Shown here piece by piece: positions 44,970-59,249 of a DNA stretch of 64,000 nt. Source of the stretch: an uncultured delta proteobacterium (GTDB lineage Bacteria; Myxococcota_A; Polyangia; Palsa-1104); NCBI GenBank assembly GCA_963785725.1, contig CAWAWS010000020.1, forward strand, positions 160,001-224,000, in the 5' to 3' direction. Every line of letters starts with the position of its first letter. The first letter of the stretch is position 1. The notes under the pieces are model-generated. The model was not told the origin of the DNA. It was given only the letters and a program-made list of their open reading frames with translations, and searched no databases. The translations under genes and the position numbers were made by a program.

Positions 44970-46924
<1,955 letters not shown>

Positions 46925-53252: not shown

Positions 53253-53467
53253 GGCACCATCATGCGCTACCTTCGACATCGGGCAGATTGCCGGCAGGTA
53301 AGAAGCGGGTTTCTTCGCCGGCGCCCAGCCGCAAAACCGGGCTCACCTGGGCGATTTTGTCACAGCTCTCCTGTTTTCGGAGGGTCGCACCCCACCGCTA
53401 GCGCGCCAACTGCCTCGAAATACAGGCGCTGATGCTTGGCGCGGAACTTGGAGCCTATTGGCGCACC

Positions 53468-54484
53468 ATGGGTGACGTCACCGCAGGTTCGACGTCCGCG
53501 CGCCGCTGCTCACAATGCGGCGGCTCGACCCATTTGCGCACGCCGCACGTCGTCATCGATGGGCCGACCATCCGCACCTTCTGCTCGGCCGATTGCGCCG
53601 CGCAGGCCGCGCAGGGCGAGCCGGCGATGCCGCTCGTGCCGCCGGAGCCGGCGCGACCGCCGCGCCGCTGGGCGCGCCGACTCATGAACCTCAGCCTCGG
53701 CGTGCCGATGCTCTTGTACACGAGCGGACGACCGCTGCCGCCGCATCCGACGGCGCTGGCCGCATCCTCGTCGGCGCCGTCGGATGCATCGGCGACGCAT
53801 ACGATCGCGGCGTCGACGCTGCCCGATCCGGCGCTGTTCGGCCCGCGCTGGCCGCCCAACGATCAAGACTGGCTCGACGAGATAGCCGGCGACGCCTGGG
53901 TGCATCCGCTCGACGGACCCAATCGCCGCATGCCCATCAGCGACAGCCGCGTCTTCGGCGCCGAGCGCGCCGGCGATCGCCCCGGCGAATGCCGCAACGG
54001 CCACTGCGGCGTCGACTTGTCGGGCCCGTGGGGCGAGCCGGTGCACGCCGTGCATGACGGCGTCGTCGATCGCGTGCAGCGCGGCCCCAACGACGAGCAC
54101 GGCGGCCTCTACGTGCGCATCGCCCATCGCGACGGCACCATCTTCTCGCAGTATTTCCACTTGGCGGCGATCCCACGTCATCTCGAGCCGGGCGTGCACG
54201 TCAAAGTGGGCGAGGTCGTCGGGCTGCTCGGCGACTCGGGCGTCAAGCACTCGGCGCCGCATCTGCATTTCGCGCTCTCGGTGCGGCCGGCGGCGAACGC
54301 GACCGAGAAGTACATGGATCCCGAGCCGCTCATCGCGCTCTGGCCGCTGCGTCTGGCGACCGGCGACACGACCGGCATGTTGACGGCGCGCGCGGCGCCC
54401 GGCGTGCCGCACGGCGCCGCGTCGCGCCATGCGCGCCATCACGCGGCCGCGGCCGCGGACGACGACAGCGGCCCGTCCGAATAG
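53468..54484 (+). CDS. M23-family metallopeptidase with an N-terminal Cys-rich (TRASH/YHS-like) module
   Basis: HCGVD and HLH zinc motifs; N-terminal CSQC..FCSADC. Confidence 0.88.
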   Translation: MGDVTAGSTSARRCSQCGGSTHLRTPHVVIDGPTIRTFCSADCAAQAAQGEPAMPLVPPEPARPPRRWARRLMNLSLGVPMLLYTSGRPLPPHPTALAASSSAPSDASATHTIAASTLPDPALFGPRWPPNDQDWLDEIAGDAWVHPLDGPNRRMPISDSRVFGAERAGDRPGECRNGHCGVDLSGPWGEPVHAVHDGVVDRVQRGPNDEHGGLYVRIAHRDGTIFSQYFHLAAIPRHLEPGVHVKVGEVVGLLGDSGVKHSAPHLHFALSVRPAANATEKYMDPEPLIALWPLRLATGDTTGMLTARAAPGVPHGAASRHARHHAAAAADDDSGPSE

Positions 54485-54489
54485 CCGCG

Positions 54490-56244
54490 CTACTCCGGCT
54501 GCGGCGGCGGCTGATGCCCGTTCTTCGGCAGCAGCGTGATGCTGTGGATGTACTGCTGGAACAACAGGTTCGACGGTGAAGCCTGCGTCGTGCCCAAGCT
54601 GATGCTGAAGTAGCCCTTGCTCTCGCTCTTCAGACCAATGTAACCGGCCTTCGAGCCTTCGGCGCCATTGACCGTGTGGTAGCCGCCGCCACCGCCGCCC
54701 TTCGCCGGCTTGGCCGGCTTGGTCGGCTTGTTGCCGGGCTTCGGTTTCGGCTTCTTCCCACCAGCGCCGCCACCGCTGCTGGAACCCTCGGCCGGATCCG
54801 ACGATCCGCTGTTCGAGCCTTTGTAGACCTCGTTGATGACCGCGGTCGCCGAGCCGCTGTCGCCGAGGACGGTATTCTTTGGGTTGAAGAGCACGTCGCC
54901 GGCGCCCGGCTTGAGCGTGATCTGAACGATCGTCTCGGTGTCCGAGTCCTTGGCGTAGTCCTTCGCCTGGTTGTAGTCGCCGAGGTGAGCGCCGATGGGA
55001 ATGATGCCGGGCGCACCGTTGCTCTTGATCTGCTTGCTGATATCGGACGATCCGAGCCGGCCGCCGCCGCTGGCGACGAGGTTGTCGACGTCCTTGCGCG
55101 CATCGCTGTCGAACCAGTCCTTGATCGCTTGCGCCTCGCTGTCCTTCATCCCGCGATAGACGCTGATCTGCGTCGGATTGGACTGCCCGGCCTTCGCGAT
55201 ATCCGACAGCAACCCCGGCCCGCCCTGCACGACGTCTTGCAGCGTGCGGTTTGGCGGCGGCGACTTGTTGTCTTTTCCCTTCCAGTAGGCCGTGCCTTGG
55301 GTCGACGTGAAGATCTTCGTTCCGTTATTCTTGTCCTGATCCTTGAGCTGCTGCTCCCAGAAGCTCTGCGAGAACACCTCGTCGCCGCGGTCGGGGGTCG
55401 CGCTCGAGCTGCCTTCGCCACTGCCCGAGCCCGAGGCCGAGCCCGAGCTCGTGCTGATCGATGGGCCGCCGTGGTCGTCGCCCAAGCCCGGCGTAGCGGC
55501 GGTGCAAGGATCCGAGTTGTGCGCCCAGACCGCGAGGCGGCCGACGAAGTACGTGTGCGTCCCTTCGACCGCGAAGTTGTAGACCGGAACGTCGGCCGCC
55601 AGCGACTCGCCGTCGACGAGATCGAGCTGCTCGCCCGCCGCATCGAGCAGATGATCGCGACCGGGCACCAGCTCCGCGGCCACGACCCAGCCGCGCTCCA
55701 AGCTCTGCAGCGGATGATCGGGCGTCGCCACGAGCGTGTCGGTCGCGCCGACCGAGTTGACGATCGTCAGCCGCACGAGCGCATGCACCCGATGCACGAC
55801 CGTGCGCAAGACCGGCCGCCACTCTTGCTCGCCGCCGAATTGATCGCGCGTCAGGACGACCGTGCCCGTCGTGATCGTCTCAATAGGGCGTAAGCCGTCT
55901 TCGGTCATGATCGGCGTGCCGGCGACGAAGCAGCCGGGCGTGCCGTCGGGGTTCTTGACCTTGCAGGCGTTGCAGTTGATGGTCGCCGTCGGGCCGTTGG
56001 GCCCGTTGCCGCTCCCGCTGCCGTTGCCGCTCGGGCCGTTTTGCGCGAGCGCGGCGCCGTCGTCGCAGGCGTTGACCTCTTTGCCGTCGAGGTCGAGCGC
56101 CGTCGTGGCGATGCCCATGCGACAACGAATCTGCTTGCCGAACGCGCGATAGCCGATGATCGCCGTCATCGCGACGAAGATCATCGCGATGACGTATTCG
56201 ATGCCCGAAGATCCGCGGATTCGTCTGCTCGTTGGTTTCGCCAT
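54490..56244 (-). CDS. Flp/Tad pilin-like N-terminus + HINT domain + putative toxin/effector domain
   Basis: RRIRG|SSGIEYVIAMIFVAMTAIIG (Flp motif); CFVAGT..TPDHP..VYNFAVEGTHTYFVG..AHN|S (HINT); unique C-terminal domain of about 340 aa. Confidence 0.88.
   Translation of the reverse strand: MAKPTSRRIRGSSGIEYVIAMIFVAMTAIIGYRAFGKQIRCRMGIATTALDLDGKEVNACDDGAALAQNGPSGNGSGSGNGPNGPTATINCNACKVKNPDGTPGCFVAGTPIMTEDGLRPIETITTGTVVLTRDQFGGEQEWRPVLRTVVHRVHALVRLTIVNSVGATDTLVATPDHPLQSLERGWVVAAELVPGRDHLLDAAGEQLDLVDGESLAADVPVYNFAVEGTHTYFVGRLAVWAHNSDPCTAATPGLGDDHGGPSISTSSGSASGSGSGEGSSSATPDRGDEVFSQSFWEQQLKDQDKNNGTKIFTSTQGTAYWKGKDNKSPPPNRTLQDVVQGGPGLLSDIAKAGQSNPTQISVYRGMKDSEAQAIKDWFDSDARKDVDNLVASGGGRLGSSDISKQIKSNGAPGIIPIGAHLGDYNQAKDYAKDSDTETIVQITLKPGAGDVLFNPKNTVLGDSGSATAVINEVYKGSNSGSSDPAEGSSSGGGAGGKKPKPKPGNKPTKPAKPAKGGGGGGYHTVNGAEGSKAGYIGLKSESKGYFSISLGTTQASPSNLLFQQYIHSITLLPKNGHQPPPQPE
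55516..55932 (-). other. HINT (polymorphic-toxin/BIL-type) auto-processing domain, 139 aa
   Basis: Cys1 at codon 55932-55930, block-B TxxH (TPDH), terminal His-Asn at 55521-55516, followed by Ser. Confidence 0.9.
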
Positions 56245-56268: not shown

Positions 56269-56282
56269 GCAAGCCCTGTGCC
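56269..56282 (-). promoter_or_regulatory. sigma54 (-24/-12) promoter of the pilin-HINT gene
   Basis: The minus strand reads GGCACAGGGCTTGC(T), i.e. GG-N10-GC, 24 bp before the ATG. Confidence 0.75.
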
Positions 56283-56382
56283 CTTTCATTCGCATGCTGA
56301 TTCGACAGCTTACACTCGCGATCACGACCGCGCGGGGTCTCTTCCCCCAACCGCGGCTGGGGCTGGCAGTCTCGGGGTCCGA

Positions 56383-57468
56383 TCAGCAGCTCAAGTTGGA
56401 GCCGGGGTCGACGCCGAGCATGTTGCAGAACGTCTGATAGTGCGTGACGCGGTCTTGCACTTCGGTCGGGTTGCCGCCGTTGCATTCGATGGAGCCGTTG
56501 ATCGTCTGGATGGTCGCGCCGAAGCCATCGCCGTTGACGATCGCGTCGTGGCAGATGTACTGACCGGCGCCCGTCGACGTCATCCAATACCAAAGGCCGG
56601 TCTGCCAGGCGACGGTGGCGTCTTGCGCGACCAGATCGGGGTTGGCTTGCAGCGGCAGGTTGAGCGCCTTGCCGACGGCGCAGTAGTTGAAGTTCCAGCT
56701 GATCTGCAAGGGACCGCGGCCGTAATACTGCTTGCCGGCGGCGCACGGGCAGTCGCTCGACGATTGGCAGTAGTCGCCTTTGACGATCTCCTCGACGTAG
56801 ACGAGCTCGCCGGTCTCGTGGGCGACGTTGGCCAAGAAGGCGGCGACCTCGCGCTTCTGCACGTCGGAGCTACCGCTGGTGGCGAACGCGGGATAGCTGG
56901 CGGTGGCGTTCACGAGCCCCTGGTACGTGTAGAAGCTGTTGCGGTTGGGGAACATCTGGTCGAACTGCGACTCGCTCAAGATCGCGGCCAAGCCGCTGCC
57001 AACGGGCGTTCCGCCGCCGCCGGCGCTGCCACCGCCACCGGCGCTGCCGCCGCCGCCGCCGGCGCTGCCACCGCCGCCGCCGTTGCCGGTCGGCGCGCAA
57101 GTGTACGGGCTCCAGTACCACGTGCTGATCGTCGGATCGTAGCCGGGGTTGTCGTGCGTCGCTTGGTAGTCGTTGCCGTTCGAGTACGTGACGATGTCGC
57201 CGGTCTTGTAGGCTTGGCCGGCGACCCACGGCAGGGCGCCGCACGCGTCGGGGCCGGTCGTCGTGCCGCCACCGCCGGCCGTCCCGCCGCCGCCGGCGCT
57301 GCCACCGCCGCCGCCGTTCGACGTCGTGCCGCCACCGCCGCCGTTCGACGTCGTGCCGCCACCGCCGCCGTTCGACGTGCTGCCGCCGCCCGCTGCCATC
57401 TTGATGTTGGACGGGCCGCCACAGCCGGCGGCGATGAAGACGAGGCAGGCGAGCACGGACTTAGTCAT
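56383..57468 (-). CDS. GH19 chitinase lipoprotein with one chitin-binding module
   Basis: LANVAHETG, YGRGPLQISWNFNY, INGSIEC; W..GQAY..GDIVTY CBM; lipobox AAGC. Confidence 0.93.
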   Translation of the reverse strand: MTKSVLACLVFIAAGCGGPSNIKMAAGGGSTSNGGGGGTTSNGGGGGTTSNGGGGGSAGGGGTAGGGGTTTGPDACGALPWVAGQAYKTGDIVTYSNGNDYQATHDNPGYDPTISTWYWSPYTCAPTGNGGGGGSAGGGGGSAGGGGSAGGGGTPVGSGLAAILSESQFDQMFPNRNSFYTYQGLVNATASYPAFATSGSSDVQKREVAAFLANVAHETGELVYVEEIVKGDYCQSSSDCPCAAGKQYYGRGPLQISWNFNYCAVGKALNLPLQANPDLVAQDATVAWQTGLWYWMTSTGAGQYICHDAIVNGDGFGATIQTINGSIECNGGNPTEVQDRVTHYQTFCNMLGVDPGSNLSC

Positions 57469-57481
57469 GCCGCGCCTCATC

Positions 57482-57495
57482 GCAAGCGCGATGCC
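57482..57495 (-). promoter_or_regulatory. sigma54-type promoter of chitinase 2
   Basis: The minus strand reads GGCATCGCGCTTGC, 13 bp before the ATG. Confidence 0.7.
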
Positions 57496-57605
57496 GAGCC
57501 CGATCGATCGCGATGATTGGGAAATGACAGGATTTGCGGCGTGGGTGACTGGAGTCGCGAGAGCCCGGGCGTCCATTGCCGGTTGACGTCCGGCCGGCTC
57601 CTCGC

Positions 57606-57658: not shown

Positions 57659-59026
57659 CTAGCAGCTGATGTTGGAGCCGGGGTCGACGCCGAGCATCGA
57701 GCAGAACTTCTGGTAGTACTGCACGCGATCCGAGACTTCGCCGGGGTTGCCGCCGTTGCACTCGATGGAGCCGTTGATCGTCTGGATGGTCGCGCCGAAG
57801 CCCGAGCCGTTGACGATGGCGTTGTGGCACGTCTGGCTGCCCGCGCCCGTCGACGTCATCCAGTACCAAAGCGCCGTCTGCCAGGCGACCGTCGCGTTGG
57901 TCGAGACGAGGTTGGGGTTGGCGAGGAGCGGCAGGTTGAGCGCCGCGCCGGCCGCGCCGTAGTTGAAGTTCCAGCTGATCTGCAAGGGACCGCGGCCGAA
58001 GTACTCCTGGCCCGCCGCGCACTGGTACGAGCTCGACGTGTCGCAGTAGACGCCCTGCACGATTTCGTCGATGTAGACGAGGCCGGCCGTCTCGTGGGCG
58101 ACGTTGGCGAGGAGCGCGGCCACTTCGCGCTTCTGCACGTCGGAGGCGCCGCTGGTGGCGAACGCGGCGTAGCTGGCGGTGGCGCTGACGAGCCCTTGGT
58201 ACGTGTAGAACGAGTTGCGGCTCGGGAACATGGCGTCGAACTGCGACTCGCTCAAGATGGCCGCGAGACCGCTGCCGCCGCTGGTCGTGCCGCCGCCGCT
58301 CGTCGTGCCGCCGCCGCTCGTCGTGCCGCCGCCGCTGCACGCGTACGGGCTCCAGAACCACGTGCTGATGGTCGGGTCGTAGCCGGGGTTGGCGTTGGTC
58401 GCGATGTACTCGTTGCCGTTCGTATAGGTCACGATGCTGCCGACGTTGTAGTACGTGCCCGCCACCCACGCCGGCGCGTTGCAGCTGCCGCCGCTCGTCG
58501 TGCCGCCACCGCTCGTCGTGCCGCCGCCGCTGCACGCGTACGGGCTCCAGAACCACGTGCTGATGGTCGGGTCGTAGCCGGGGTTGGCGTTGGTCGCGAT
58601 GTACTCGTTGCCGTTCGTATAGGTCACGATGCTGCCGACGTTGTAGTACGTGCCCGCCACCCACGCCGGCGCGTTGCAGCTGCCGCCGCTCGTCGTGCCG
58701 CCGCCGCCCGACGTCGTGCCGCCGCCGCCCGACGTCGTGCCGCCGCCCGACGTCGTGCCGCCGCCGCTCGAGCAGGTCACCGCCGTCCACAGCGACGCGA
58801 CCGCGTCGGGCGTCCAGTTCGAGAGCGCCGTGTGCGCCTGCACGCACTGATAGATCGTGCCGTTGTAGCTGACGAGCGCGCCGACCGCGTAGTACGTGCC
58901 GGACGCCCAAGCCGGCACCGTGGCCGGGCAGGAGACGGCGGAGCTAGCGCTGCTCTCGCCGGAAGTTTGCGCCATGCCGCCACAGCCGGCGACGACGAGG
59001 ATGCATGCGAGCAGTGTCTTGGACAT
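57659..59026 (-). CDS. GH19 chitinase lipoprotein with three chitin-binding modules
   Basis: LANVAHETA, FGRGPLQISWNFNY, INGSIEC; three AW..GTYY.VG modules; lipobox VAGC. Confidence 0.93.
   Translation of the reverse strand: MSKTLLACILVVAGCGGMAQTSGESSASSAVSCPATVPAWASGTYYAVGALVSYNGTIYQCVQAHTALSNWTPDAVASLWTAVTCSSGGGTTSGGGTTSGGGGTTSGGGGTTSGGSCNAPAWVAGTYYNVGSIVTYTNGNEYIATNANPGYDPTISTWFWSPYACSGGGTTSGGGTTSGGSCNAPAWVAGTYYNVGSIVTYTNGNEYIATNANPGYDPTISTWFWSPYACSGGGTTSGGGTTSGGGTTSGGSGLAAILSESQFDAMFPSRNSFYTYQGLVSATASYAAFATSGASDVQKREVAALLANVAHETAGLVYIDEIVQGVYCDTSSSYQCAAGQEYFGRGPLQISWNFNYGAAGAALNLPLLANPNLVSTNATVAWQTALWYWMTSTGAGSQTCHNAIVNGSGFGATIQTINGSIECNGGNPGEVSDRVQYYQKFCSMLGVDPGSNISC
58316..58700 (-). 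repeat. 195-bp near-exact duplication of a chitin-binding module plus linker
   Basis: Matching sequence at 58334 and 58529 (period 195 bp, 65 aa), bounded by SGGGTT codon repeats. Confidence 0.9.
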
Positions 59027-59039
59027 GCCGCGCCTCATC

Positions 59040-59053
59040 GCAAGCGCAATGCC
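59040..59053 (-). promoter_or_regulatory. sigma54-type promoter of chitinase 1
   Basis: The minus strand reads GGCATTGCGCTTGC, 13 bp before the ATG. Confidence 0.7.
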
Positions 59054-59249
59054 GGACCGCTCACGAGCGCGACCGCACGGCGGGCAACGACTTCGCGGAA
59101 TCGGCCCTGGGGCGGCGCGACCCACCACGTCCATTGCGGGTTGACGTCTCGCGTCGGAGACAACGATTTATCGCTGTTTCGACCGCCATTTAGCGCGTAA
59201 ACGCGGTCCCCTTGCCGCTAGTCGGATCGCGTGGTGCAATGGCCGTCCG

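Follow-up and report, generated by a model that had tools for sequence, protein, structure and literature searches.

A candidate pilin-tagged polymorphic toxin with a HINT domain in a member of the Polyangia

INTRODUCTION

To our knowledge, a characteristic N-terminal tag marks each known route by which polymorphic toxins are delivered. Here we analyze a gene in which this tag appears to be a pilin. It lies in a stretch of 64,000 nucleotides (the window; positions 160,001 to 224,000 of contig CAWAWS010000020.1, assembly GCA_963785725.1) from an uncultured delta proteobacterium of the class Polyangia, and a preliminary description had read it as a candidate for the gene of a toxin that is delivered by a Tad pilus and released by a HINT domain. 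In the polymorphic toxin survey of Zhang et al. 2012 (PMC3482391), HINT domains are tied to export by type II, type V, and type VII secretion systems (T2SS, T5SS, and T7SS) and by TcdB/TcaC, and the words "pilin," "pilus," and "Flp" do not occur in the portion of that text examined. The Kil apparatus of Myxococcus xanthus (PMC8460266, PMC12075869) is Tad-like and kills on contact, with effectors proposed to be necessary; the Kil tip either carries or binds a toxin, the identity of which is left open in PMC12075869. The available part of that text describes no pilin-HINT-toxin fusion ("hint," 0 occurrences; "intein," 0 occurrences). In PMC12605009, a single sentence mentions Flp pilins as one kind of protein that carries ARC toxin domains; 1 of its 12 examples comes from a myxobacterium, and the text, as far as it was available, does not say which example carries the pilin. 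The preliminary description knew of no described toxin class with this architecture. No description of a pilin-HINT-toxin class was found in the literature searched, but the naming of Flp pilins as ARC carriers qualifies this claim.

RESULTS

The query gene (54490..56244; it and all of its parts are on the minus strand) encodes a protein of 584 amino acids (P0001) that combines a putative Flp-type prepilin, a HINT domain, and a predicted ADP-ribosyltransferase (ART)-fold toxin. The reading frame, 56244..54490, is open and has a high GC content at third codon positions over its whole length. The N terminus reads MAKPTSRRIRG, then SSGIEY, with Glu at +5 and Tyr at +6, and fits the prepilin motif G/XXXXE as given in PMC12075869. 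The basic leader (residues 1 to 11; 56212..56244) ends at a predicted prepilin-peptidase site between G11 and S12, and G at -1 and E+5 are invariant in alignment A6. The Flp-type pilin helix (residues 12 to 55, with E16 and Y17; 56080..56211) contains the sole strongly hydrophobic stretch of the protein, with a hydropathy above 1.6 only in segments starting at residues 11 to 18. A Cys/Gly/Asn linker (residues 56 to 104; 55933..56079), in which the conserved Cys91 and Cys94 precede the HINT domain, leads to the PT-HINT domain (55516..55932), and Ser244 (the +1 residue) plus a Ser/Gly linker (residues 244 to 285; 55390..55515) leads to the C-terminal toxin domain (residues 286 to 584; 54493..55389). 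The leader, Glu+5/Tyr+6, the hydrophobic helix, and both linkers are present as the preliminary description had claimed.

The fusion is not unique in its genome. The source genome of the window (G000; G, C, L, and P numbers denote genomes, contigs, loci, and proteins) is represented by an assembly of 8.9 Mb that is 88% complete and contains six PT-HINT genes, all six with the pilin motif at the start. Their ends are mutually unrelated: one paralogue ends in a papain-fold Gln_amidase domain just below the cut-off and another in a TseH-like domain (Atlas 0.96, 181/256 features), and three ends, including that of the closest paralogue, P0005, have no family. No immunity-like gene was found downstream of the query or any of its five paralogues.

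The fusion was not seen in any of 14 other genomes of the same family, several of which have free Flp pilins, and occurred in 1 of 27 genomes of the rest of the order (G022, with a ParB-like end). In another family of the same class, f9, a profile match was obtained in 18 of 151 genomes; 32 regions were examined, and pilin-HINT-toxin genes were found in 8 of the genomes, among them G506 with 10 copies and G555 with 4, each of which is assembled as a single contig. Among the matches listed, further fusions came from records titled Myxococcales, Polyangiaceae, and Kofleriaceae, and all titled fusion records were from Myxococcota, other phyla having been searched less fully. In the final protein search, 39 proteins were new; once one false match had been dropped, 14 of them showed the pilin pattern, and visual inspection added 3 more. 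The ends seen here included a DXD glycosyltransferase, an M91 peptidase, and Ntox21. Elsewhere among the relatives, the ends included ribonucleases with barstar, ARC-like domains with Imm74 (as in the Flp-HINT-ARC-like gene at L261), a YwqJ deaminase, Ntox21 with CdiI_N, and unnamed domains followed by Imm49 or Imm6; many had no Pfam family. A downstream immunity gene with Pfam support was present at seven related loci (L261, L266, L272, L274, L285, L286, and L287). The C termini of 33 fusions fell into 25 clusters (of 36 rows, 3 were skipped; the tails of 3 rows are partly out of frame). The same pilin-HINT front end carries many different warheads: the preliminary description had proposed a search for varying C termini, and homologues have many differing toxin-type ends rather than one invariant nontoxic one.

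Some variants of the architecture were also seen. P0101 has a pilin, then two tandem HINT domains, and then an end domain, and at L121:3625-5392 (+) the pilin part and the HINT-toxin part are in separate frames. In family f3, a lipoprotein-like signal peptide is followed by a HINT domain and a non-toxin-looking domain at L012, L015, L016, L017, L021, and L036, and HINT is the end of the protein at L011, L034, L014, L018, and L019.

The Tad cluster and prepilin peptidase that a pilin-delivered toxin calls for are both encoded in G000, on two contigs. C15 carries genes for Flp, TadE, TadG, CpaB, FHA-CpaF, TadB, TadC, and a second CpaF; C4 carries those for a secretin, a TPR protein, and an A24 peptidase. 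P0005 is encoded 9 kb from cpaB. The presence of cpaB in 10 of 10 carrier genomes tested says little by itself. In 5 of these 10 genomes, which are kin and some of which are fragmented, the distance between a fusion and cpaB is no more than 15 kb, whereas genome size and copy number would predict this for 0.25 genomes, and in G278 a gene for a TadE-type pilin-HINT-Ntox21 protein lies with its immunity gene inside the tad operon, between the prepilin peptidase gene and tadG. Together with the machinery, the recurrence of the fusion, and its varied toxin ends, this genetic linkage and the cognate immunity genes of relatives support the interpretation of the query as a pilin-delivered polymorphic toxin. 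At the end of the tad cluster on C15, a 77-amino-acid pilin (L001:11156-11386 [-]; G000:C15:211155-211385) has the R-C-K-M and later Cys pattern of the fusions and no HINT or toxin; from its sequence, it looks like an unloaded carrier.

The Flp identity of the query N terminus is based on its motif, on the paralogue at C4:160376, which passes the Flp_Fap cut-off (32.9 versus 32.2 bits), and on a profile comparison in which 14 fusion N termini matched 10 free Flp pilins (99.2%, E of 1e-19); the rows were picked by motif, and the comparison speaks for kinship, not frequency. With 584 amino acids versus the 50 to 80 residues of major Flp pilins, the query is not a short protein and, therefore, could only be a minor, domain-bearing pilin. 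Several points weigh against this reading. The query N terminus alone gave no match to Pfam Flp_Fap (PF04964), so the motif and the kinship, but not a family assignment, bear out the Flp prepilin of the preliminary description; the free 59-amino-acid Flp of G000 itself is also below that cut-off (14.7 bits). E+5 is lost in some fusions. In G506 and G555, the majority of the copies are distant from tad loci, and no linked copy is present in the richest carriers. Finally, L275, L276, and L277 of G555 encode HINT-toxins with a plain hydrophobic, non-pilin N terminus and the same warhead types (ARC-like with Imm74 at L276). The last three of these observations would be expected if the pilin-like helix of a polymorphic toxin were a mere Sec signal-anchor, with release by HINT in the periplasm and exit by vesicles, the T2SS, or lysis. 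A plain anchor, however, needs none of the residues G-1, E+5, and (mostly) Y+6, which are kept in all 6 copies of G000 and all 14 of G506 and G555, and it does not account for the cpaB linkage or for a TadE-type fusion within an operon. We consider the signal-anchor explanation unlikely, if the strongest of the alternatives.

The preliminary description had called the C-terminal domain unique, but 96 proteins (including P0006 to P0100) share it at an E value of ≤0.001. Among the 56 of these that were scanned, the carriers included eCIS_core (15 proteins), ToxA_N (6 proteins), and RHS (2 proteins). The predicted structure matched RhsP2 (7RT7) best, with 17% identity in the structural alignment, and at the sequence level no homology to RhsP2 and no PDB chain at an E value of ≤10 was found. 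Residues R364, H420, Y430, E529, K539, and E541 are conserved, and R364, Y430, K539, and E541 are in the same order along the sequence, by which they were compared, as the apparent R-Y-E triad plus Lys of RhsP2. The modeled domain very probably has an ART fold, and the query end defines a widespread family of 96 clusters with this predicted fold, for which neither Pfam nor NCBIfam has a model. By analogy with RhsP2, its substrate could be RNA, although we rate this at slightly less than an even chance.

Since no immunity gene is kept at the query, its end might be a mild or decayed effector or an adhesive tip. A Gly/Lys/Pro low-complexity insert of 45 residues within the toxin domain (54670..54804), which has a low predicted local distance difference test score and is missing from P0002 and P0004, would be in line with decay, as would the P0005 end without a family and the frame changes in two paralogues, one just past HINT and the other close to its end. 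However, the query retains every near-invariant residue of the family, the domain is also found on eCIS-core, ToxA_N, and RHS carriers, and the genome has other apparent indel errors. The paralogue frame changes may be assembly errors, because the window has similar breaks near 45,300 to 45,900, where one gene (~44970 to 46924 [+]), presumably formaldehyde-dehydrogenase-like, is spread over several frames, which suggests indel errors in the assembly. Decay or adhesion is thus improbable.

The full HINT domain of the preliminary description was confirmed by a match to PT-HINT (PF07591) of 65.5 bits (cut-off, 27.7) that spans C105 to H242-N243, with Ser244 next. The catalytic residues C105, T174-x-x-H177, and the terminal H242-N243 are intact. 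With Ser at +1, as in three full-length homologues that likewise read HNS, the domain could splice in the query, that is, excise itself and leave the enzyme covalently on the pilin and displayed on the pilus. But +1 is Ser or Thr in only 3 of 33 fusions and Cys in none, and therefore cleavage, for which the family appears to be built, should be the rule; moreover, pilus retention would bring little gain to an enzyme with cytoplasmic targets. We judge splicing to be a shade less probable even than a decayed end, and release of the toxin by HINT to be quite likely.

The absence of the HINT-to-C-terminal-domain junction from all public contigs listed might suggest that a pilin gene was wrongly joined to a toxin gene during assembly. 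Such a chimera is refuted by full-length three-part fusions in ENA (96% identical), Logan (67%), and JGI (62%), by dozens of genes of the same plan, some in single-contig genomes, and by contigs of public runs that span the pilin-linker-to-HINT junction (X1 record 7, X2 record 13, and X8 record 30).

At the query locus, a convergent M23 peptidase gene (53432..54484 [+]), whose product has an N-terminal zinc-ribbon-like segment, ends 5 nucleotides from the toxin stop, so that an immunity gene could not fit in between. Immediately upstream, the toxin gene is flanked by two tandem genes for GH19 chitinases with CBM5/12 modules (56383-57576 and 57659-59134 [-]), possibly an antifungal context; both have a sigma-54-like box (8 of 11 positions). 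The -24/-12 consensus used for scoring is one we take to be that of sigma-54. The query itself has such a box 39 nucleotides 5' of its ATG (56269..56283 [-]). In a test prompted by this box, 5 of 6 pilin-HINT genes, versus 2.7% of 2,520 genes, had a sigma-54-like box with 9 of 11 positions matching, which in the pilin-HINT genes lies 28 to 39 nucleotides before the start. An FHA-sigma-54 activator and a Ser/Thr kinase, encoded between P0005 and the tad cluster (L001:8122-11000), are candidates to control these boxes. Also near the tad cluster is a gene with a box of 10 of 11 positions for a 1,182-amino-acid protein without a Pfam family (L002:3209-6754 [-]; G000:C15:225208-228753), which has an Flp-like start and long GPxVTG repeats. 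On C7, a 290-amino-acid gene without a Pfam family (L227:456-1325 [+]; G000:C7:896455-897324) converges on the paralogue there; the gene preceding it is presumably phage-baseplate-spike-like.

DISCUSSION

The query is very probably a polymorphic toxin, and it is likely handled by the Tad machine. We infer pilus incorporation, cleavage, killing, and all steps of transport and activity as follows. The prepilin helix would enter the inner membrane, which, from pilin topology, would place HINT and toxin on the periplasmic side, so that a cytoplasm-acting enzyme is kept from its own substrate. The A24 peptidase present in the genome would cut after G11, and the Tad platform, of which the genes are present and linked to fusions, would take up the minor pilin and move it through the secretin on contact. 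HINT, with its catalytic residues intact, would then cleave after N243 and free the toxin, and the freed domain would ADP-ribosylate a target in the cytoplasm of the victim, most likely RNA, as RhsP2 does. This complete mechanism, a pilin-tagged polymorphic toxin exported by the Tad machine and freed by HINT, is somewhat favored by the sequence data.

The lack of an immunity gene is compatible with protection of the producer through compartmentation and also with a eukaryotic victim. eCIS-core, ToxA_N, and Tc-type carriers have host-directed roles, and because of these carriers and the two upstream chitinases, we lean weakly toward fungi or protists as victims. In a wider proposal, to which we give an even chance, the Tad pili of Polyangia would be a toxin secretion system: a genome would load its pili from a set of as many as ten pilin-HINT-toxin genes of the Flp or TadE type, the products of which would be interchangeable minor pilins that release themselves on contact, with immunity-linked warheads directed against bacteria and immunity-free ones, such as the RhsP2-like ART, against fungi or protists. 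If true, the Tad pilus would join the delivery routes of polymorphic toxins, with the pilin as its tag. The fusions bear on the way in which Tad-like pili kill prey: in related myxobacteria, they are specific candidates for toxins carried by the pilus, and they can be tested. Clean genetics is possible because the genomes of several consist of a single contig and contain classic RNase-barstar pairs, and the pilin-HINT tag can serve as bait for new toxin domains.

Apart from adjacent immunity at its own locus, the query has the polymorphic-toxin features that were tested. Like the HINT-processed polymorphic toxins described in the available part of PMC3482391, many of which have a downstream immunity gene, it has an N-terminal targeting part and HINT directly before a swappable toxin; unlike them, it has no immunity gene and its targeting part is apparently a Tad pilin. 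The architecture is real and general, and it likely represents a new way of delivery within these systems. The toxin domain on an Flp pilin in PMC12605009 is comparable to the Flp-HINT-ARC-like gene with Imm74 at L261, and because this locus matches the carriers named there, one such fusion was probably already depicted in print, although not recognized as a class; the available text contains no HINT, Tad link, family, or delivery test. RhsP2, the RNA ADP-ribosyltransferase toxin of Pseudomonas aeruginosa (PMC12340436), resembles the query domain in its fold and in an apparent R-Y-E triad with a Lys two residues before the Glu. The query domain is larger, has inserts and the extra invariant H420 and E529, and lacks a sequence-level match, and RhsP2 is delivered by a type VI secretion system and has an immunity protein. 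Kil shares with the Tad system of G000 an FHA-fused ATPase and genes in two clusters, but it has a single ATPase rather than two CpaF-type genes; Kil also has variable minor pilins, whereas the variable part of the fusions is a fused enzyme and not a tip complex (PMC8460266, PMC12075869). Domain-bearing minor pilins such as PilB/PilC of Streptococcus sanguinis and KilN (PMC12075869) also join a pilin helix to a large extra domain, but in these proteins the extra domain has an adhesive or structural role and is not released, whereas the query has a putative self-cleaving domain before its toxin.
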